Source: a virus
Taxonomy: Duplodnaviria; Heunggongvirae; Uroviricota; Caudoviricetes
IMG/VR virus record: IMGVR_UViG_2667528074_000004
Location: 1-42,710 of that record
Length of the DNA: 42,710 bases
Strand: one strand, 5' to 3'
Of the stretch, positions 3,521 to 33,599 are shown piece by piece; positions within the stretch are counted from its first letter, which is position 1; the number at the start of each line of letters is the position of its first letter. Position numbers and translations under genes: made by a program. The notes beneath the pieces were generated by a model. That model saw only the letters and a list, made by a program, of their open reading frames with translations, was not told the origin of the DNA and ran no database searches.

Positions 3521-4209
3521 GTCGGTTTATCCGTTGCATTGGAATTTATTGTTGCCCCACCACTTTGTACACCTGAAACAGAATGTTTGTGATTGTTATA
3601 ATTGTCCCTTAAATTTTTAACAGTAGATGACTGTGAACTTGCGTTATCCTGAATATCACCGCTAACTTTAAGTAAAGGAGTATTCATGTTGACTCCACCA
3701 GGAGCATCAATATTTAACGATGAACATTTAATATTTAGTGGGTTAGGCGTGGTTATGTTTATTGCACCATCAGCAAATTCAATGAATTGAGTAGGTGCAA
3801 TATTTAATACCCCACCAAGATAAATTGCATCAGATTTACTGTGTCGCCTTTTGCTTCCAGGTACTGATTCTTTACGATTTTTTCTTACCAGTGATGTGTC
3901 TTTGTCGCAGACCGCAATCAGACCAATATCACCTGCCACAGGGTCCATAATTACAGCACTGTTACCTCTCTGTAACCGCCATACAGGAATATCATATAAA
4001 ACCGAGTTGGAAATCATTTTTCCTGTACGGTCTGTTCTGGTAAGCAAAGGAAGAGCATCAACAACTAAATCTGGTGCCTCACCCCTGACTTCCTGAACTT
4101 TTGCTAACTCAATGAAGAAATATCCAGACATCAGCATCTCAAAAATATATTCCTGAGATTGAGCCTCACTTACCTGAGCAGGAGTTGGAGTAAATAGTTG
4201 CTTATCCAT
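3517..4209 (-). CDS. Baseplate spike/assembly protein (V-like)
   Basis: ORF-track ORF 3517-4302 trimmed to internal ATG at 4209 (MDKQLF...) that directly abuts the stop of the upstream gene at 4202-4204. Confidence 0.45.
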   Translation of the reverse strand: MDKQLFTPTPAQVSEAQSQEYIFEMLMSGYFFIELAKVQEVRGEAPDLVVDALPLLTRTDRTGKMISNSVLYDIPVWRLQRGNSAVIMDPVAGDIGLIAVCDKDTSLVRKNRKESVPGSKRRHSKSDAIYLGGVLNIAPTQFIEFADGAINITTPNPLNIKCSSLNIDAPGGVNMNTPLLKVSGDIQDNASSQSSTVKNLRDNYNNHKHSVSGVQSGGATINSNATDKPT

Positions 4210-5191
4210 TATTCTGTTGCGCCTCTGTTCTTTGTTCCGCTGTTCTGGCGGCAATACATATTGAGTGCCATGAACCATTTGGCATCCATGATGATAATTC
4301 ATGCCGAACGGAGGTTAACTTATACCTTCCGCTTGCATGTGGTAGTTCTGTTTTGATATCCACATATCTTCCAATGCAAAGGAGAGATGAATATTGCGTC
4401 TGAAACATCAGTCCCCCATTTGAAAATACAGGATATCCAACAAGTCCGTATTCTCTGGATATAAACGGAATTACATCGTCTCTGTTTTTTTCTGAAGGCC
4501 AGAACTCTACTTTTGTCGGTGGCGTAGCTGACATCGCCAGTCCATAATCTGAACAGACCCTATAAAGTTGCTCAAAAACACTTCCTTCAAAATGCGGACT
4601 TCCTGATGTTGTCATCCCTTTTACATTATTAAACACAGCTTCATAACCTGCACTTGCACAAATGGATGAGATGACATCTTCAACACTTTGCGCCCCCTGC
4701 GCTGTAAACGGGCTTGCTGGCATGTTCTGTAAATCAACATTAGAAGAGGCTGTTATCATCAGACTGCTTTCAGGAGCAGAATTCATGTTTGCTATTGATG
4801 AAAGCATCGTGCCGGAGAAAACAAGAGAATCATCAGCAAATACCTCAACATTTAACTTCTGACCTTCCCCAACAATACCATCAGCCTTCCCTGATATATC
4901 AGCAAGTCTTTCGATTCCTAACCCGTAAAGAGATATATCAGCCTGAGCACCTCCCCGACCGGTAACAAAGTTCAGGGATACTGTTGACTTAACATTTCTG
5001 ATGGAGATTTTATTGTTCCCATTTTTATCAAATGCTGATGATTCATTCGTGAAGTCAAACCGAAGACTGTGATTTTTATACAAGCTCGTTTTCCTCGATG
5101 TAATACAGCAAGTAACGGCTACCCAAACCTTCCCATCGCGGGTCCGATTCCCCATCATTATCAATGAAAATAAGGTCTCCCTTAAATCCAA
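4202..5191 (-). CDS. Baseplate/tail protein (Mu gp44-like); start uncertain
   Basis: 329-aa ORF; its 5-prime end overlaps ORF 5076-5378 so the true start may be internal. Confidence 0.45.
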   Translation of the reverse strand: MDLRETLFSLIMMGNRTRDGKVWVAVTCCITSRKTSLYKNHSLRFDFTNESSAFDKNGNNKISIRNVKSTVSLNFVTGRGGAQADISLYGLGIERLADISGKADGIVGEGQKLNVEVFADDSLVFSGTMLSSIANMNSAPESSLMITASSNVDLQNMPASPFTAQGAQSVEDVISSICASAGYEAVFNNVKGMTTSGSPHFEGSVFEQLYRVCSDYGLAMSATPPTKVEFWPSEKNRDDVIPFISREYGLVGYPVFSNGGLMFQTQYSSLLCIGRYVDIKTELPHASGRYKLTSVRHELSSWMPNGSWHSICIAARTAEQRTEAQQNNG

Positions 5192-5378
5192 GGTAGGAAT
5201 ATCTTACCATCTTATTCCCATGCAGACATGGAACGCCCTGCATAATTGGGACTTCATTAACAGTTAAATCCATGTACATAAAACTCTGTCGCTGAACAAG
5301 TTTTATATTACATTGCTGACCAGCCAGACTTACCGAAATGGACTGAGATTTGCTGGGAAGAACAGATACTGTAATCAT
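5076..5378 (-). CDS. Hypothetical tail protein
   Basis: 100-aa ORF packed between tail genes, 4-nt overlap with upstream gene. Confidence 0.35.
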   Translation of the reverse strand: MITVSVLPSKSQSISVSLAGQQCNIKLVQRQSFMYMDLTVNEVPIMQGVPCLHGNKMVRYSYLGFKGDLIFIDNDGESDPRWEGLGSRYLLYYIEENELV

Positions 5379-6190
5379 GTACTCGCCTTAACTATATTTT
5401 TTGCAATATCTGCCGCTTTTTTTGTTGCGCTGTTTGTGACTTCGAGTATTGGTTTGGATACCGTATCAAGAGCACTCTGGAATTCAGTCTTGATTGTGTC
5501 GGAGATTTTTCCAGTGATTTCGCCAACAGATGACTTCAGTGATGACCATGATTTACTTAGCTCATCGACAGTAGATTCCCTGGCTCCGCCATTGGTTATT
5601 TGCGGATCAACTCCTACATCTCCCTGTGACTTATTGTTATCCGTTGGCTTCTGTTCTGACTGAGATCCAGAGAGGATAACCTCCATTTGCTGAATGACCT
5701 CCTGAAAATCAAGATAAACCGTCAGAAGAGTCACCCCCTTTTGAGAGTTAACTTCGTAATAGTGGTCAACAAGGTCGAAACTCTCCAGAGTTTCCTTTGG
5801 CGTTTCAATATCGTATGTTTTTGCAGAGGACAGCATCGTTTTGATTGTGTTCAGCGTGCTGTTCTGGCTTGTGAATGTGAGATCGAAAATATTCGGGATG
5901 TTGCCGGAAAAACCAGTAAGACCATTTACGATGATTGCACATCTTACTCTGGCTGGTTCTTTAACTTTGTTGATGGACTGGTATTTCCCTTTCTCCACCG
6001 GAGCGTTTGTTATTTGCGCCCTTCCGCTTGGCTGTACGGATGCCATACCACTGAACTCAAGAGCAACCTCGCCAGTTTCCCTGTCACGAATCACATACTG
6101 AGGATGCAGAACGCTGTCGATGATCGAAAGCGGAGAGCCACCACCGATAGCATTGAATATGTCTGCTGTGTTTAAATCGATTATGCCCAT
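5375..6190 (-). CDS. Tail/baseplate structural protein
   Basis: 271-aa ORF at the position of Mu gp43 (N) relative to tape measure. Confidence 0.4.
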   Translation of the reverse strand: MGIIDLNTADIFNAIGGGSPLSIIDSVLHPQYVIRDRETGEVALEFSGMASVQPSGRAQITNAPVEKGKYQSINKVKEPARVRCAIIVNGLTGFSGNIPNIFDLTFTSQNSTLNTIKTMLSSAKTYDIETPKETLESFDLVDHYYEVNSQKGVTLLTVYLDFQEVIQQMEVILSGSQSEQKPTDNNKSQGDVGVDPQITNGGARESTVDELSKSWSSLKSSVGEITGKISDTIKTEFQSALDTVSKPILEVTNSATKKAADIAKNIVKAST

Positions 6191-6202
6191 CTACTCTCCA
6201 TT

Positions 6203-6228
6203 AAACAAAAAACCCACCTGACGGTGGG
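6203..6228 (-). terminator. Rho-independent terminator after the 355-aa moron
   Basis: On minus strand: stem CCCACC, loop GTCA, stem GGTGGG, followed by TTTTTTGTTT (plus-strand aacaaaaaacccacctgacggtgggtt). Confidence 0.6.
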
Positions 6229-6234
6229 TTACTG

Positions 6235-7242
6235 TTACTTGTCTGAATCATCCAGTTCGTCTGTTTTCACATCCTCAAACCTTGGATGCAGGCGATTCAT
6301 TTTTGCAATAAAATCTGAATAGTCGTTAGATAGCTTCATAATCGTAACGGTTGATGACAGATGCTCTCTTAATTTTTGATATCCAATATTTGGCGTCAGC
6401 CCCTGAAACAACTTTGTACCTTTTGAAGCCTTTACGTTCTGCTTTTTAAGCTCCTCAAGGATGTTTGGTGCCAATCGCTTGTAGACGATATCATTTGTCA
6501 AAACGCCAAAATACTGAGGCCGGAAGCGGGGATTTTCCGGCGGGTATTCAAAGCCCCTTAACCTGAAAAGCTCTTCATAATAATCAGCCGGAAATGTTGT
6601 AATATAAGGTTGAATTTCCTTTGCGACAAAGGCCTCGAGTATTTTGGCGAGCGCATCTTTTTCTCTATCTCGCTGGTACCCCGTCGCTTCATCAACAAGC
6701 GCTATTATTCCGACTTTAGCTAATGAGCGCACCAGAATTTCAGCTTTTTTGGCTGTCTCTAACTGGTTTGGCCTGGTGATAGCGCCTGCCTCTCTTGCCT
6801 TTAAATAAACATCGCAAACAAGAGGTATTATGGATGCGTCATAACCTTCTTGGACGGAGCCAGTAATCGTCTTGTATTTGACCTTATTGATCACATCCAT
6901 AACATCTTGATTTATATATTTTTTAAGGTTTGCAGCATCCATAAAAGCGGGCATATTGATCACCCCCTCTTCTTGAGGTGCTCTACCCCCTCTTTGTGGT
7001 CGGCCAAATGCTTTAAAAACAGAAGCTTGTGATATGATACGCCGTCCATTTTCGAGAACCGCGACATCTAATTCCGCATCACCGATCTTTAACTTTCCCT
7101 CATTCGCAGATACGGGCAATAAAGCTTTTTCTTTTTTTGCGGCAACAGCCTTTCTTGAGGATTCTTTTCTTTGCTCTGCTGTCATTTTTGCGGCGCGTGC
7201 CTTACCGCCTTTAGCCTTCCCACTAACATCATCATTTTTCAT
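6235..7242 (-). CDS. Hypothetical protein, Lys/Ala-rich basic N-terminus plus conserved C-terminal domain (possibly P63C-like); moron inside tail operon
   Basis: ORF-track ORF 6235-7302; I place the start at ATG 7242 (MKNDDVSGKAKGGKARAAK...) but 7248 or 7302 are possible; followed by own terminator. Confidence 0.5.
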   Translation of the reverse strand: MKNDDVSGKAKGGKARAAKMTAEQRKESSRKAVAAKKEKALLPVSANEGKLKIGDAELDVAVLENGRRIISQASVFKAFGRPQRGGRAPQEEGVINMPAFMDAANLKKYINQDVMDVINKVKYKTITGSVQEGYDASIIPLVCDVYLKAREAGAITRPNQLETAKKAEILVRSLAKVGIIALVDEATGYQRDREKDALAKILEAFVAKEIQPYITTFPADYYEELFRLRGFEYPPENPRFRPQYFGVLTNDIVYKRLAPNILEELKKQNVKASKGTKLFQGLTPNIGYQKLREHLSSTVTIMKLSNDYSDFIAKMNRLHPRFEDVKTDELDDSDK

Positions 7243-7283
7243 GAGCATATCTCGTGTTGTGATTGATAAGTCAATCATACACA

Positions 7284-7301
7284 TGCACGTTATAGCGTGC
7301 A
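7284..7301. promoter_or_regulatory. Perfect palindrome TGCACG-ttatag-CGTGCA in divergent intergenic region (candidate operator)
   Basis: Read directly; a second copy of ATGCACGT lies at 7312-7319. Confidence 0.3.
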
Positions 7302-7453
7302 ATATTTAAATATGCACGTAAATTGCGAATCAGATAATGAGGAGACTTTCTCCCCCTTGCACTGACATCATGGTATCCTGCGCAAAACTAACCGCTGCGT
7401 GCTTTTGCTTCAGTTAACGGATACAAACAGAGGAAAATTTACAAGGGGAAAGA

Positions 7454-7912
7454 ATGAAATCCAGATTTTTCACAATAGCAATATTTTCTTCCGTTCTTCT
7501 ATCACTCGCAGCTTATGCTGCATCCGACAAAGATAAGGAAAAAATGATGTCTTTAATAAAAGATGCTTCTCCTTATGTTGCAGGCATGGGTAAAAGCATT
7601 GATGAAGTTTGTCAGGATATGGCTAACGACATGGTAAAAAAGTATGGAAATCAACTTAGTGCTATTGGCAAGTCACCGTCAGATATACGAGATTCATCGT
7701 ATGGTATATGCTTTGACGCTGCATCTTCAGCATCATTATCGCAATCCATAGAAGAAGTAAGCATGTGGAAAAATGCAGCAATGCAAAACATTAACGCCAC
7801 ATTCCGAGGCGAGAATGAGCAATCTCCCGCACGAAAATTTCTCGTTGAGACAATTGATCACTCTGAGAAAATGGCAAAAACAATTGCATTCATGCGGGAA
7901 ATTAGTCAATAG
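7454..7912 (+). CDS. Secreted/periplasmic protein of unknown function (signal peptide); opposite-strand moron
   Basis: 152-aa ORF; N-terminus MKSRFFTIAIFSSVLLSLAAYAASDK has the n-h-c pattern of a Sec signal peptide with AYA-A cleavage site; SD aaggggaaag upstream; AT-rich; only plus-strand gene inside the minus-strand tail module. Confidence 0.6.
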   Translation: MKSRFFTIAIFSSVLLSLAAYAASDKDKEKMMSLIKDASPYVAGMGKSIDEVCQDMANDMVKKYGNQLSAIGKSPSDIRDSSYGICFDAASSASLSQSIEEVSMWKNAAMQNINATFRGENEQSPARKFLVETIDHSEKMAKTIAFMREISQ

Positions 7913-7920
7913 CAAATCTG

Positions 7921-9696
7921 CTAAGGCACTGCACTTGAAAATGCCTGATTTACTGATGATCTGCGATTCAACTCCTTAAATCCTTCGGTTAGTTTTGAGG
8001 ATTGATCCGTTTTGGCAATTACCTTTACCTCTCCTATGTGCTGGCTGTTGTAATTGTTAACAACGCTCTGGGCATAGGATTGGTTTGCAGATCCATTAGC
8101 CAATCTTTGCTGGGTTTGGTAGTACGCGGCATTGCTATTTTTCGTTGGGTTACCATAATCAAGACCCCGCTTCCAATCTGGATAACCTTCATGCCTAGCC
8201 ATATAGGCGCTAAGTTTTGCCATAACCTCTGGATCTGAGAGGTTTAGCTTATCATTGGCACCAACGCCCATAGACTTAGAAACCTGGTCAATATACGCCT
8301 TTGTGTTGTTTTCTGAGGATGGTGCCCACTTGCTTATTATCCCTTGCAATGTATCAAGCTTATCTCTTTTGTAGTATAGAGTCAGTTGATTCCTAGCGGC
8401 CTCCCAGCCCTCTTCTGGGTCGAAGTATTGAGCAAATCCGTCCTTGTCTCTTCTTCTGTTTCCAGTAGCTTTAAGATTTAATGGGTTATTGTTTCTGTCA
8501 GGCCTGTTGACACCATTTTTGTTAGGAGGAATCTCTTTATTTGGATCGTCATAATCCATCCCAATGAGCCTTTCCAGCCAATGCTGCTGAAATGCGAATG
8601 GCCGCATCTCATCAGGAACATCTTTATACTGGTCTTGTACCATCTGCCCAAAAATACCAACAGCCCCGATTAATCCCAGCTTGCTTCCTAACCCTTTGCC
8701 GCTAAGAAGAGCCATGGCAGCAAGAATGCCCAATGCGTTTCCAGCGCCACCAACGGCTTTAACAAAACCATCAATACCTGTACTCAGGTTCCTGAAGAAC
8801 CCAACAATGTCACCCTTGTTGTTTTTCAGCCACTCTAAAAACTCCTGTTCTGCTTTAAGCACTTCAGGGCCAAATGTAGCCATTAATTCTTGTTTAACCT
8901 GAGCAAATTGCGAGTCAAGGGCTTTAGTCGTAGCAAGAATATTACGCTGTGCTTCTTCCTGCTCTTTGGTCATCTGCCATCGTTTTTCTTCCTCAGATAC
9001 CATCTGCACAGCTTTTCCGCTTTTAATATCCCCGGCAAGGTTAGGGTCATAACCAAAAGCAGAAAGCACTTGCATTAACTGTTTCTCGTTATGGTTCTTC
9101 CCATATTTCTGAAATTCCGCCAGAGCATCTTCTGATTTACCTCCAAGCTTACTAATATCAATGCCTGTTCTCGCTCCAGTTGTTAGTAAATTCTGAGCCT
9201 CCGGTGTAAGTCCGCCGAAAATTGTTGGGTCTTCTATATTGGCAAGCGCCATCCTGGCGCTCATCTGTGCCCCAAGGAACGCGCCGCCGTTCTGACCAAT
9301 TCGGGAGAATCCATACTGAGTACCAAGAACGTTACTGGCGCTTGTTCCAAGCATTCTCCCCATATTACTGGCTCTTACAATTGACTCCGAAGTACTTTCA
9401 AATGCACGATGAATGCCAATGGCTACGGCAGTCAACACACCGCCAACAGCCACAAAGCGTGTCGAAAGCCCCAAAAAACCATTAAATGAAGCAGTCAACC
9501 CTTTCATTGCAACAGCAGCTTTGTCGGTCTCCTTAGCCGTTTTGGACATCGAGGAGGTTGTTGACCTTTCTATCGCAGATGAAGATCTCTCTATTTCGTT
9601 TTTAAGGTCTTGTGCTTCCTGCTTTACTTTCCGTTTTCCATTCAGGAATTCATCGGCCTTAATTGTGACCTTGTAGGCCAACTCATTGATAATCAT
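7921..9696 (-). CDS. Tail tape measure protein
   Basis: 591-aa ORF directly downstream of the chaperone pair; position and size. Confidence 0.55.
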   Translation of the reverse strand: MIINELAYKVTIKADEFLNGKRKVKQEAQDLKNEIERSSSAIERSTTSSMSKTAKETDKAAVAMKGLTASFNGFLGLSTRFVAVGGVLTAVAIGIHRAFESTSESIVRASNMGRMLGTSASNVLGTQYGFSRIGQNGGAFLGAQMSARMALANIEDPTIFGGLTPEAQNLLTTGARTGIDISKLGGKSEDALAEFQKYGKNHNEKQLMQVLSAFGYDPNLAGDIKSGKAVQMVSEEEKRWQMTKEQEEAQRNILATTKALDSQFAQVKQELMATFGPEVLKAEQEFLEWLKNNKGDIVGFFRNLSTGIDGFVKAVGGAGNALGILAAMALLSGKGLGSKLGLIGAVGIFGQMVQDQYKDVPDEMRPFAFQQHWLERLIGMDYDDPNKEIPPNKNGVNRPDRNNNPLNLKATGNRRRDKDGFAQYFDPEEGWEAARNQLTLYYKRDKLDTLQGIISKWAPSSENNTKAYIDQVSKSMGVGANDKLNLSDPEVMAKLSAYMARHEGYPDWKRGLDYGNPTKNSNAAYYQTQQRLANGSANQSYAQSVVNNYNSQHIGEVKVIAKTDQSSKLTEGFKELNRRSSVNQAFSSAVP

Positions 9697-22364: not shown

Positions 22365-22907
22365 TTAATTAGTGAGTCCGGGGATTACGGTTTGCCCGTG
22401 CTGTTCAAGGCGTTCAATTCTCGCCAGTAGCTGAGGCTTCTTAATTTTTCCCCAGCGATTTAGCAGGCGACCTGACATGCTGGCAACATCCTTCTCTTTC
22501 ATGTACTCCAGCATTACGGCATTTCTCTCTTCTTCAAATTGACGATGACCAACCTGAAGCATGGCGTACATCCAGTTAAATGCGTTGATGTAAGCAATTT
22601 TGATACGCATTGCTTCTTTTTTGGTGTAGGACATAACCAAAAGCATCAACCCATCCTTGCGGAGACGGTAGAATTTTTGCGGCTTACCATTCTGTAACTC
22701 ATTGTTTTTATAGCAAAGCTCAAAGTTGAGCTTTGTATCAAACTCAGGAGGGCAAGCTTCTATGGTTCGCTCAATGTCACGGACTACGTTCTTCGGAAGC
22801 TTTCCAAATGCTTTTGCCACCATAAAAGAATCTGTAACCGGATCGTTGTTTGCTACAAAAATTAGGTCTCTGAAATCTATATCGTTAACAACGGTTGGGT
22901 AGTTCAT
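22365..22907 (-). CDS. rha: Rha-family phage regulatory protein
   Basis: 180-aa ORF; N-terminal segment ...NDPVTDSFMVAKAFGKLPKNVVRDIERTI... resembles the Rha signature. Confidence 0.6.
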   Translation of the reverse strand: MNYPTVVNDIDFRDLIFVANNDPVTDSFMVAKAFGKLPKNVVRDIERTIEACPPEFDTKLNFELCYKNNELQNGKPQKFYRLRKDGLMLLVMSYTKKEAMRIKIAYINAFNWMYAMLQVGHRQFEEERNAVMLEYMKEKDVASMSGRLLNRWGKIKKPQLLARIERLEQHGQTVIPGLTN

Positions 22908-24518: not shown

Positions 24519-24594
24519 TGGTGCTGGTTAACGGACTTGAACCGCTACCCATTCGCTTACAAGGCGACCGCTCTACCATTGGAGCTAAACCAGC
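24519..24594 (-). tRNA. tRNA with anticodon UGU (Thr-like)
   Basis: Hand-folded cloverleaf: acceptor GCUGGUU/AACCAGC, D-stem GCUC/GAGC, anticodon loop CUUGUAA, T-arm AGCGG-UUCAAGU-CCGUU, encoded CCA; one G-A mismatch at top of anticodon stem. Confidence 0.6.
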
Positions 24595-24599
24595 ATATT

Positions 24600-24674
24600 T
24601 GGCGGGACAGCGTGGACTCGAACCACGATAAGAAGGTTAACAGCCTTCCGTAATGACCTTTATACGACTGACCC
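24600..24674 (-). tRNA. tRNA with anticodon GUU (Asn-like)
   Basis: Hand-folded: T-arm CGUGG-UUCGAGU-CCACG, anticodon stem GAAGG/CCUUC, loop CUGUUAA, encoded CCA; acceptor stem has one U-U mismatch and D-stem one mismatch. Confidence 0.5.
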
Positions 24675-24765: not shown

Positions 24766-25254
24766 CTATGCTATATGTTTAATTTTCTCTACACGTTTCC
24801 GGTTTTTAAACGCACTATCCAGAACCGGGTAAATCATAAACAACGAGGCATTGATGATTTCGTCAACTTCCCGTCGACAGGTTGCGAGCGATGGTTTTTG
24901 AATGCGCCCGCCGCCCCGGCATAACATCTTGCGAGGTCTTGCGACGCGATGATAGTAAGATGCAATGGCGTGCTTGGAAGAGCCGTGGGCGTAGTAGCTG
25001 AGGAGGATGCCAAAGGCTTTCTTGTCAATGTACATGACGGAATCGACGACCTGAGAAATCAACATTCCATCATCATCATTACACATTGGCCTTGTCATAA
25101 CTCTTCCCGGCTCTACGCTCTCCATGAACTTAGCTATTACGCTGCTCATGCGCTTTTCCAGACGACCTGAATAAACCCATGCGCCCCACAGTTCAAGCCA
25201 GCCATTCAGCCAATCGTGCTGTTCTTTGGTGAGGTTTAGCTCTCTTATGCTCAT
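24766..25254 (-). CDS. Q: Late-gene antiterminator Q (Q21-type)
   Basis: 162-aa ORF at the canonical position between nin genes and lysis cassette; size matches the short phage-21 Q class. Confidence 0.7.
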   Translation of the reverse strand: MSIRELNLTKEQHDWLNGWLELWGAWVYSGRLEKRMSSVIAKFMESVEPGRVMTRPMCNDDDGMLISQVVDSVMYIDKKAFGILLSYYAHGSSKHAIASYYHRVARPRKMLCRGGGRIQKPSLATCRREVDEIINASLFMIYPVLDSAFKNRKRVEKIKHIA

Positions 25255-31480: not shown

Positions 31481-32197
<717 letters not shown>

Positions 32198-32309: not shown

Positions 32310-33149
32310 ATGAAGAATGGTTTTTATGCGACTTACCGCAGCAAAAATAAAGGGAAAGATAAGCGCTCAATAAACCTGTCTGTTTTCCTTAATTCTCTGC
32401 TGGCTGATAATCATCACCTGCAGGTTGGCTCCAATTATTTGTATATTCATAAAATCGATGGAAAAACTTTTCTCTTTACCAAAACAAATGACAAGAGTCT
32501 GGTTCAGAAGATAAATCGCTCTAAAGCTTCAGTTGAAGATATTAAGAACAGCCTCGCAGATGACGAATCATTGGGATTCCCATCTTTTTTGTTTGTTGAA
32601 GGCGACACCATTGGTTTTGCCAGAACTGTTTTCGGGCCGACCACATCCGATCTGACAGATTTTTTAATCGGGAAAGGAATGTCATTAAGCAGTGGAGAGC
32701 GCGTTCAGATAGAGCCACTGATGAGGGGAACCACCAAAGACGATGTTATGCATATGCATTTCATCGGCCGAACAACGGTGAAGGTAGAAGCCAAGCTACC
32801 TGTATTTGGCGATATATTAAAGGTCTTAGGGGCAACAGATATTGAAGGGGAGCTTTTTGACTCATTGGATATAGTCATTAAGCCAAAATTTAAAAGGGAT
32901 ATAAAAAAGGTTGCCAAGGATATTATTTTTAACCCGTCACCTCAATTTTCAGACATTAGCCTGCGGGCAAAAGATGAGGCCGGAGATATTTTAACAGAAC
33001 ATTATCTATCAGAAAAAGGCCATCTCTCAGCGCCTCTGAACAAGGTCACCAATGCTGAGATAGCTGAAGAGATGGCATATTGCTACGCAAGAATGAAAAG
33101 TGATATACTGGAATATTTTAAAAGGCAGGTGGGCAAAGTTAAGGATTAA
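32310..33149 (+). CDS. rexA: RexA (Rex abortive-infection/exclusion system)
   Basis: 279-aa ORF directly downstream of cI; size and position as in lambda. Confidence 0.85.
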   Translation: MKNGFYATYRSKNKGKDKRSINLSVFLNSLLADNHHLQVGSNYLYIHKIDGKTFLFTKTNDKSLVQKINRSKASVEDIKNSLADDESLGFPSFLFVEGDTIGFARTVFGPTTSDLTDFLIGKGMSLSSGERVQIEPLMRGTTKDDVMHMHFIGRTTVKVEAKLPVFGDILKVLGATDIEGELFDSLDIVIKPKFKRDIKKVAKDIIFNPSPQFSDISLRAKDEAGDILTEHYLSEKGHLSAPLNKVTNAEIAEEMAYCYARMKSDILEYFKRQVGKVKD

Positions 33150-33164
33150 TTATCAGGAGTAATT

Positions 33165-33599
33165 ATGCGGAACAGAATCATGCCTGGTGTTTACATAGTA
33201 ATAATTCCTTACGTTATCGTAAGCATTTGCTATCTCCTTTTCCGCCACTACATTCCTGGTGTTTCTTTTTCAGCTCATAGAGATGGTCTTGGGGCGACAT
33301 TGTCATCATATGCAGGAACCATGATTGCAATCCTGATTGCTGCCTTGACGTTTCTAATCGGAAGCAGAACGCGCCGACTGGCCAAGATTAGAGAGTATGG
33401 GTATATGACATCGGTAGTTATTGTCTATGCACTTAGTTTTGTTGAGCTTGGAGCTTTGTTTTTCTGCGGGTTATTGCTTCTTTCCAGCATAAGCGGCTAC
33501 ATGATACCCACTATCGCCATCGGCATTGCCTCTGCATCGTTCATTCATATATGCATCCTTGTTTTCCAACTATATAATTTGACCAGAGAACAAGAATAA
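33165..33599 (+). CDS. rexB: RexB membrane protein
   Basis: 144-aa ORF with four hydrophobic segments; lambda position. Confidence 0.85.
   Translation: MRNRIMPGVYIVIIPYVIVSICYLLFRHYIPGVSFSAHRDGLGATLSSYAGTMIAILIAALTFLIGSRTRRLAKIREYGYMTSVVIVYALSFVELGALFFCGLLLLSSISGYMIPTIAIGIASASFIHICILVFQLYNLTREQE

Follow-up and report, generated by a model that had tools for sequence, protein, structure and literature searches.

What kind of locus is formed where two genes of no structural appearance interrupt the tail operon of a temperate phage, and what might these genes do there? The question is raised by positions 6191–7920 of a 42,710-nt stretch of DNA (IMG/VR record IMGVR_UViG_2667528074_000004, positions 1–42,710, hereafter the window), where two non-structural genes, called here gene A and gene B, are found between the tape-measure protein (TMP) gene (7921–9696) and the first baseplate gene (5375–6190). 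An original prediction, made from the letters of the window, had described this region as a two-gene accessory insertion of moron type within a Mu-like tail operon. The interruption of the tape-measure-to-baseplate run is confirmed, the open reading frames (ORFs) 6235..7302 (minus strand) and 7454..7912 (plus strand) lying between the two flanking genes, and in the minus-strand run from 1 to 21690 every ORF that could be assigned to a family is indeed on the minus strand.

The reading that we favour, and consider somewhat more probable than not, is that of a variable locus resembling the immI/sieA region of phage P22 and holding two independent modules, a cassette carrying a P63C-domain gene (gene A) and an exclusion-type gene for a secreted protein (gene B). 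The locus belongs to a well-known type of phage add-on site. It takes up the same kind of place as the P22 region, within the late operon, after the last gene for DNA delivery (here that of the tape-measure protein, which has a muralytic domain) and before the following tail gene. The genes concerned are the following.

5375–6190, minus strand: first gene on the baseplate side, Dit-like / baseplate hub-plug neighbour (Pfam Dit_like, E 1.2e-4; phrog_1830, E 6e-74), conserved left flank of the slot
6235–7248, minus strand: gene A, P63C-domain protein of 337 aa from the ATG at 7248, a start picked from the N-terminal consensus of the family
7454–7912, plus strand: gene B, antisense to the late operon, predicted secreted all-helical protein of 152 aa with two cysteines (C53 and C86), orphan family
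7921–9696, minus strand: tape-measure-like tail protein (phrog_873, 2013, 2276 and 7182), located after the tail assembly chaperone and forming the slot's right flank
8137–8514, minus strand: muralytic (endolysin-like) domain of the tape-measure protein, residues 395–520 (phmmer against the PDB)

A variable junction in related loci

Related loci (85, designated below by L and a number) were gathered from E. coli and Yersinia genomes, GTDB representatives and IMG/VR contigs with the Dit-like protein as anchor, and the slot was measured between the stop of the tape-measure gene and the start of the Dit-like gene. This analysis reveals a gap ranging from −4 bp (L078 and L095; −1 in L075) to 4950 bp. 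The junction is essentially empty in six loci, stop and start overlapping in L075, L078 and L095, and the cargo ORFs sort into 62 protein clusters. Read in the late sense, a recurrent order is found: the TMP gene, an antisense gene abutting its stop, a P63C gene in sense, an antisense Arc/Mnt-like gene, a small Arc-like gene in sense, a sense gene for an antirepressor with P22_AR_N and P22_AR_C domains, one or two further sense genes and the Dit-like gene. Of the 85 loci, 33 contain the P22_AR antirepressor and 34 contain Arc-like genes; other cargo comprises ANT, ORF6N and Rha proteins, a helix-turn-helix (HTH) + S24 repressor, a Panacea-domain pair, TnpB and an insertion sequence (IS) transposase, and the slot therefore accepts very varied genes. 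The presence/absence polymorphism that had been put forward as the first thing to verify is confirmed, relatives being empty or provided with different cargo, and the junction is a variable accessory slot. Moreover, the relatives do not all carry the same two genes with homology to virion proteins, so that the accessory reading stands. Among individual loci, E. coli TB354 (L003, 7235–8102) has a Panacea-domain protein and its partner at the TMP/Dit junction, and the junction cargo of L020, L067, L088 and L086 includes an HTH+S24 repressor, TnpB (IS605 OrfB/Cas12f-like) and an IS transposase.

The slot of the window is a reduced version of this order, with the antisense gene and the P63C gene only. 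No other instance of the gene A cassette paired with gene B was found, either in the surveyed loci or in 5426 complete E. coli genomes; the cassette stands beside a different secreted protein of 152 aa in three genomes (frameshifted in the one inspected, L001), and gene B is accompanied by a different P63C allele and the full Arc/antirepressor set in one genome. The two accessory genes are thus independent modules, acquired separately. Of the two-gene insertion originally proposed, the accessory interval is retained; the single insertion event is not, because the cassette is found in 49 of the 5426 E. coli genomes, mostly in other phage types, and ORF B in one. ORF B is associated with the tape-measure side of the locus. 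In L001 (E. coli SC407) the P63C cassette at the same junction (4237–5288) is annotated as frameshifted, and the secreted protein beside it, of a family that we call C6, has exactly the length of the gene B product (152 aa).

Genes A and B are divergent from each other and gene B is convergent with the tape-measure gene; the description of the plus-strand gene as convergent consequently applies to the latter neighbour and not to gene A. The G+C content is 0.386 in gene B, 0.424 in the P63C cassette and 0.405 in the intergenic region, the flanking genes being at 0.444–0.448 and the window at 0.46. The AT-richness claimed for gene B is therefore borne out, and the lower G+C content of both accessory genes is real but modest.

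The P63C cassette and its operator-like array

The following elements were delimited in and around gene A.

6205–7391, minus strand: P63C cassette of 1.19 kb, exchanged horizontally as a unit and ending at the same points in three unrelated phage contexts (blastn)
6202–6230, no strand assigned: 29-bp boundary sequence with terminator, common to the left flank of relatives and to the cassette (blastn joints)
6211–6230, minus strand: intrinsic terminator of the P63C gene, AACCCACC-GTCA-GGTGGGTT plus T-run (sequence scan and fold)
7274–7302, minus strand: putative sigma-70 promoter of gene A, −35 TTGCAC (7302–7297), 17-nt spacer, −10 TATGAT (7279–7274), read by eye
7284–7319, minus strand: operator-like array ACGTGCA-N11-TGCACGC-TATA-ACGTGCA, overlapping the −35 hexamer and the spacer
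7302–7313, no strand assigned: perfect 12-bp palindrome ATATTTAAATAT, spacer between operator sites 1 and 2
7339–7355, minus strand: weak hairpin upstream of the promoter, GGGGAGA-AAG-TCTCCTC (fold z −2.0)
7366–7423, no strand assigned: conserved element upstream of the secreted-protein gene (blastn), of which 7366–7391 is the right recombination joint

The cassette is 98.7% identical over 1187 bp, operator and terminator included, to that of phage 933W, and likewise in 16 other records of Shiga-toxin (Stx) phages, where it is located in the nin region, flanked by a DNA methyltransferase gene and by roi. It is also 99.2% identical to a copy in a P22-like prophage, inserted between the DNA-transfer genes and the tailspike gene, i.e. 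at the ant position. Complete E. coli genomes contain it at 54 places in the 49 genomes mentioned above, all copies covering at least 80% of its length, whereas the tail module is found in 21 of these genomes only. The boundaries are short: on the left, identity with the flank of relatives reaches 6230 and the 933W match begins at 6205; on the right, the 933W match stops at 7391 and the L004 match begins at 7366, which leaves an overlap of 26 bp (7366–7391). The 29-bp terminator block is duplicated as a direct repeat in L004 and L005 (second copies at 3878–3906 and 8799–8827, respectively). From these joints we infer that recombination at short boundary sequences exchanges cassettes and removes the genes in between; the present cassette would have moved between unrelated phages as a unit, probably via the 29-bp terminator block and the 26-bp stretch 7366–7391. 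The P63C gene appears dispensable for the phage, since the L001 copy is frameshifted. A homing-endonuclease interpretation of the cassette was set aside, no nuclease fold or motif and no co-conversion of flanks having been found.

The terminator has a stem of 8 bp with 5 GC pairs followed by TTTTTGTTT, and its fold (−16.8 kcal/mol, z = −3.7) was equalled in 0 of 200 shuffles. A strong hairpin after gene A had been correctly recognised from the start; it runs from 6230 to 6211 on the minus strand and not over 6203–6228. Late transcription in lambdoid phages is Q-antiterminated, and for this reason a terminator within the late operon is tolerable. A putative promoter region, the terminator, the lower G+C content and near-identical copies in unrelated phages together support a textbook moron anatomy for gene A. 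The moron architecture originally assigned to both genes is thus right for gene A, while for gene B neither a terminator of its own nor a consensus promoter was found.

The longest ORF of gene A (6235..7302) would yield 355 aa from a TTG, and RefSeq homologues start at 7284; a length of about 335 aa is kept across more than 7000 homologues. Its product matches Pfam PF10546 (P63C) over residues 202–292 (E 4.5e-24, 85.3 bits against a gathering cut-off of 26.1) as well as phrog_2384 (E 4e-146), and 34 of 34 aligned homologues match the P63C profile. The N-terminal 42 residues are strongly basic (+7.5), the AlphaFold2 (AF2) model (predicted local distance difference test score, pLDDT, of 71) comprises a beta-rich domain at about residues 45–136 and then helices, and the C-terminal half contains the invariant polar residues D185, E186, Q191, R194, E204, E210, N251, R257, H295 and H320. 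None of the Ant, Bro, KilA or Rha domains (ANT PF03374, P22_AR_N/C, Bro-N, KilA-N) was detected in gene A, P63C being the only domain recovered even at E ≤ 1 in 34 members. PADLOC-DB 2.0 gave no significant match (best E 0.006 and 0.014, over short stretches), and NCBIfam and PDB sequence searches were uninformative, with no solved relatives and no catalytic fold recognised. The P63C domain was reportedly defined in 2002, in a paper about the shuffling of domains among transcription regulators of DNA viruses; a literature search found no paper on the function of P63C, PF10546 or L0095. The remark that neither gene product is a characterised protein holds for both, neither having PADLOC matches, solved relatives or papers on its function. 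Elsewhere, P63C genes are found in tail-operon slots beside Arc and P22_AR_N modules (P. aeruginosa and Morganella), at the same TMP/Dit junction in Morganella, and in the early region in Chromobacterium.

Upstream of gene A, the −35 hexamer TTGCAC is inside the second site of the operator-like array, the third site falls in the 17-nt spacer and the −10 hexamer TATGAT comes after. Three of the 12 TGCACG half-sites of the window are gathered within 35 bp (7284–7318) of its 42.7 kb, and the array has no other occurrence in this prophage. P63C genes of Morganella and Chromobacterium have this array and promoter layout upstream as well (TTGCAC-17-TATACT in Chromobacterium L100), the proteins being about 57% identical and the surrounding DNA unrelated. 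The divergent P63C allele of L004 has ATGCAAGCAT/TGCTTGCA four times in place of the TGCACG array. Among 48 independent P63C upstream regions, 58% have a non-AT 6-mer that occurs three or more times within 110 nt, against 17% of Markov shuffles and 12% of other tiles of the same loci, and these upstream repeats form related classes (ACGTGC, GCAAGC, TAGCAT). When the class of operator was compared with the N-terminal and with the C-terminal domain of P63C, both tracked phylogeny equally.

Viral contigs were scanned for the inverted repeat TGCACGT-N4-ACGTGCA, which yielded 80 loci. All 22 of those also having a P63C gene have the repeat directly upstream of that gene; the other 58 are without a P63C gene, and most of these look like chance matches in coding DNA. 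The inverted repeat by itself was for this reason rejected as a P63C marker, only adjacency to P63C genes being diagnostic. The identical inverted repeat TGCACGTTATAACGTGCA is also found in L197 (3986–4003), and in about 10 IMG/VR contigs of the same high-GC kind, between divergent HTH repressor-like and Cro-like genes of unrelated phages, which appears to be a coincidental reuse by a CI/Cro-type switch unrelated to P63C. As for the perfect palindrome reported in the divergent intergenic region, the 12-mer ATATTTAAATAT is present as described and is not significant alone, because the window contains six such palindromes where about 10 are estimated by chance (window length / 4^6, uniform base composition); the significant feature of this region is the group of three TGCACG half-sites.

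The most economical reading of the array, judging from its position and conservation, is that the P63C protein negatively autoregulates via the TGCACG sites; autorepression is favoured because the P63C gene is the only one that always travels with them. The product of gene A would be a basic cytoplasmic protein which most likely binds the half-sites and represses its own promoter, and this would maintain a low, steady level of gene A independently of late transcription. Its downstream role may be, as a best guess, that of a trans-acting regulator or exclusion factor of the Ant/Rha/Bro type.

Two further details of the cassette deserve mention. Many other P63C cassettes have a strong terminator upstream (L101–L104, L123–L128, L152–L157) where the window has the weak hairpin. 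A conserved leader, CACAACACGAGA (7249–7262, minus strand), directly precedes the P63C start codon and is also present in L101–L104, L123, L124, L126 and L134 (E. coli, Morganella and several metagenomic contigs), the DNA further upstream being different; it may be a translational or RNA-level signal.

The antisense secreted gene

Gene B ends 8 bp from the tape-measure stop. The signal peptide proposed for its product is supported by a hydrophobic peak confined to the N-terminus and kept in 23 of 23 aligned homologues; the predicted Sec signal consists of MKSR followed by FFTIAIFSSVLLSLAAYA, with cleavage between AYA and AS. The mature protein would be acidic (isoelectric point 5.2) and about 130 aa long, its AF2 model is an all-helical bundle (pLDDT 87), and C53 and C86 are invariant among the homologues. 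The family is very small: clustering at 90% identity gives 29 clusters, all named ones from Enterobacterales, and 1.84 billion representatives include 9 of its clusters at 50% identity. No match was obtained in Pfam, PHROG, PADLOC, NCBIfam or the PDB, and comparison of sequence and of fold gave no relative with an established function.

Every copy of gene B examined abuts the tape-measure stop on the opposite strand, and in Yersinia L007 it is the sole cargo. This position is not restricted to the gene B family: in 46 loci the gene that follows the tape-measure gene is antisense to it and abuts its stop, and in 43 of them it has a signal-peptide-like N-terminus as judged by a simple heuristic, at least six families being involved. 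Pairwise hhalign comparisons among the three main secreted slot families, C2 (that of gene B), C6 and C8 gave probabilities below 6%, and no homology is therefore claimed despite their similar size and cysteine spacing. When slot family was compared with the type of tape-measure C-terminus, all C-termini fell in one homology group, and adjacency would confound any association at a finer level.

Longer relatives of gene B (259–287 aa), likewise antisense and abutting the TMP stop, are found in the IMG/VR contigs L039, L059, L070 and L037; they consist of a gene B-like domain, a Pro-Ala repeat linker (PAPAPAPAPAPAPA in the inspected L039 protein) and an extra C-terminal domain, a layout which suggests a periplasm-spanning or anchored form. 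On the upstream side, L003 (8442–8498) matches the 57-bp element 7366–7423 at 86% in front of a different, unrelated secreted-protein gene; this element has no sigma-70 consensus, and no RNA fold of significance was obtained for either strand of 7355–7435.

The most plausible role of gene B would be superinfection exclusion by a periplasmic factor directed at the tip of the incoming tail; this is argued from position and from analogy with T4 Spackle, HK97 gp15 and P22 SieA, homology giving no support. Its expression would be expected in the lysogen because it is transcribed antisense to the late genes, and late read-through would silence it. The product most likely acts on incoming tails, or on the muralytic/injection step of the tape-measure protein. 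Concerning this target, residues 395–520 of the tape-measure protein match solved chains of the PDB named 'Endolysin' (7q47_A, E 1.8e-10) and 'Gp29' (9vvp_L, E 9e-13) by phmmer, and the PHROG 'tail injection transglycosylase' spans residues 418–504.

The host prophage, the rival explanations and related systems

The window is a lambdoid (lambda-like) E. coli prophage with an E217-type contractile tail. Its lambdoid gene set includes a lambda-type integrase, N, rexA/rexB, a cleavable CI (HTH + S24), cII and a DnaB-type helicase, to which are added NinB/NinX, Q, two tRNAs, lysozyme, Rz and a Rha-type regulator; the late genes occupy the minus strand from 1 to about 21.7 kb. The designation of the tail as Mu-like has to be abandoned: the sheath (DUF3383/E217_gp31_N) and the tube (E217_Gp32), as well as the baseplate, match Pfam E217 families, the tail families in relatives are E217_gp27, E217_GP41, Pam3_gp18, Sheath_initiator, Baseplate_J and Phage_Wedge1, and the sole Mu-like signal in the window is the Phage_Mu_F head-morphogenesis domain. 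None of the isolated phages in INPHARED has this structural module or gene B. The homologues of rexA and rexB (32310–33599; Pfam E 1e-97 and 8.5e-92) adjoin the CI-type repressor gene (31484–32197), and the prophage therefore has a lambda-type Rex exclusion system. A gene for a Rha + ORF11CD3 regulator (22365–22907, minus strand) between the lysis and terminase genes represents a second moron-like slot with a protein of the antirepressor class. The two tRNA genes (24522–24594 and 24603–24674, minus strand) are directly downstream of the Q antiterminator gene (24766–25254) and upstream of the lysis genes, a placement that resembles that in Stx phages, there being no space for a toxin operon. 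These tRNAs are the only Rfam matches at the gathering threshold in the whole window, and 6100–8000 gave, at E ≤ 1, only a sub-threshold, terminator-like sroH fragment.

Several other explanations of gene A have to be considered. It could be a strict antirepressor, analogous to P22 Ant, which inactivates CI-type repressors of its own or co-resident prophages, the TGCACG sites serving only to keep it off in the lysogen. Gene A does occupy the slot where relatives have P22_AR, ANT, Rha or ORF6N proteins, the same cassette is found at the ant position beside an Arc gene in the P22-like prophage, P63C genes neighbour Arc and P22_AR_N modules in P. aeruginosa and Morganella prophages, and the cleavable CI would be a possible target. 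We nevertheless judge this unlikely: a P22-type antirepressor co-occurs in 5 of 7 P63C-bearing loci, so that P63C is no simple replacement of Ant, the 34 family members searched down to E ≤ 1 are devoid of Ant, Bro or KilA domains, the 933W copy is transcribed with delayed-early genes of the nin region, and no Arc/Mnt control is present in the window. Alternatively, gene A might be expressed in the lysogen to defend it against phages or to abort infection; the C-terminal P63C domain would then be the effector or the sensor, and the gene would spread as a host-protecting moron. To this idea we assign a similarly low probability. The self-contained, insulated unit is typical of prophage-expressed morons (PMC3594210), relatives have defence-type cargo such as the Panacea-domain pair at the same site, many polar residues of the C-terminal half are invariant, and the confinement of the operator array to a single place suggests that gene A does not regulate resident phage genes. 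On the other hand, the PADLOC matches are not significant, no catalytic fold was recognised, and members of the P63C family, instead of lying in defence islands, occur almost exclusively within phages, where their operons vary.

For gene B the corresponding alternative is a lysogenic-conversion or host-fitness factor (periplasmic stress, envelope or virulence accessory), its position beside the TMP gene being a historical accident. This would agree with the lack of homology or fold match to any exclusion protein, with the host phenotypes often served by secreted moron products (PMC3594210) and with a linkage to the TMP gene that is inseparable from adjacency; it is improbable in our view as the same antisense, TMP-abutting position is filled across genera by at least six unrelated secreted families (43 of 46), which suggests a function linked to this neighbourhood and not chance, and the gene B family, with its few clusters, is found in these prophages only. 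Finally, both genes lie inside the tail operon, with gene A on the late-sense strand, and might be taken for lineage-specific components of tail assembly or of the virion. This is effectively refuted by the junctions in which the TMP stop overlaps the Dit start, by the gene A pseudogene of L001 and the presence of gene A outside tail operons in siphovirus- and podovirus-type genomes, by the antisense orientation and secretion signal of gene B, and by the strong terminator after gene A.

The favoured reading, an immI/sieA-like locus with two independent modules, has in turn to face a number of contrary points. The window itself is without Arc, Mnt and Ant genes, so that the term 'immI-like' rests on relatives, and the surveyed loci include near-duplicates, the counts given above thus overstating independence. 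The candidate promoter of gene A is below the 9/12 threshold of the scanner, and the scan found no consensus promoter for gene B. The linkage of gene B to the TMP gene is indistinguishable from simple adjacency, and neither sequence nor fold comparison detected a relationship of gene B to known exclusion proteins, Spackle, SieA and gp15 included. A bolder joint reading, which we regard as rather doubtful, would make the antisense, TMP-abutting secreted families fast-turnover periplasmic exclusion proteins that neutralise the muralytic/injection end of the tape-measure protein, as a temperate counterpart of T4 Spackle, and, separately, would make P63C proteins widespread, self-repressing, sequence-specific DNA-binding cassette proteins for inter-phage conflict.

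Accessory slots in late operons are where prophages keep lysogen-acting genes for exclusion, immunity and conversion, and the present locus would extend the logic of P22 immI/sieA to lambdoid phages with E217-type contractile tails. It would also provide a defined candidate operator, ACGTGCA-N11-TGCACGY-N4-ACGTGCA, for the large P63C family present in Shiga-toxin phages, and new superinfection-exclusion proteins could be sought by means of a positional rule, namely that an antisense secreted gene adjoins the stop of a tape-measure gene with a muralytic domain. Should neither prediction hold, the region would be another mosaic joint with two genes of no assigned function.

Comparison with known systems places these features in perspective. 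Tab, the tail assembly blocker of JBD26, was considered and is unrelated (83 aa, located between terminase genes). The HK97/HK022 morons share with the present locus extra DNA relative to related phages, an own terminator (here that of gene A), lower G+C content and a place beside the tape-measure gene (PMC3594210), to which a putative promoter region of gene A may be added. HK97 gp15, the product of a moron located beside the tape-measure gene in the tail operon, acts in superinfection exclusion (PMC3594210); it is a small inner-membrane protein of the YebO family, whereas here a 337-aa cytoplasmic P63C protein and a 152-aa periplasmic protein are predicted. ST933Wp35 / L0095 of 933W is essentially the same P63C gene in the same cassette, located in the early-right operon of a short-tailed Stx phage and not in a late tail operon. 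T4 Spackle (Sp), a helical-bundle protein of the periplasm containing a disulfide, inhibits the tail lysozyme gp5 (PMC7677548). With gene B it has in common a small secreted helical bundle, a cysteine pair and a phage tail with a muralytic domain, which makes a functional analogy plausible; Spackle is 75 aa in its mature form and an early gene product of a virulent phage, whereas gene B is prophage-borne with a mature product of about 130 aa, and, as stated, no similarity was detected between the two.

The closest parallel is the immI/sieA region of P22, in which mnt-arc-ant plus sieA are located between genes 16 and 9 (PMC8022706). Both are late-operon sites directly after the last DNA-delivery gene, highly variable among relatives (PMC8022706), and the relatives of the window show the same components in the same order: an antisense gene by the delivery gene, then a Mnt/Arc-like gene, also antisense, followed in sense by an Arc-like gene and the P22_AR_N+C antirepressor. 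The differences are that a contractile E217-type tail and a tape-measure protein take the place of the P22 ejection proteins, and that the window has lost, or never had, mnt, arc and ant. Moreover, SieA resides in the inner membrane (PMC10883804) whereas the gene B product is predicted to be soluble and periplasmic; escape mutations that overcome exclusion by SieA affect the ejection proteins (PMC10883804). Taken together, the site is better described as a counterpart of P22 immI/sieA than as a random moron site.

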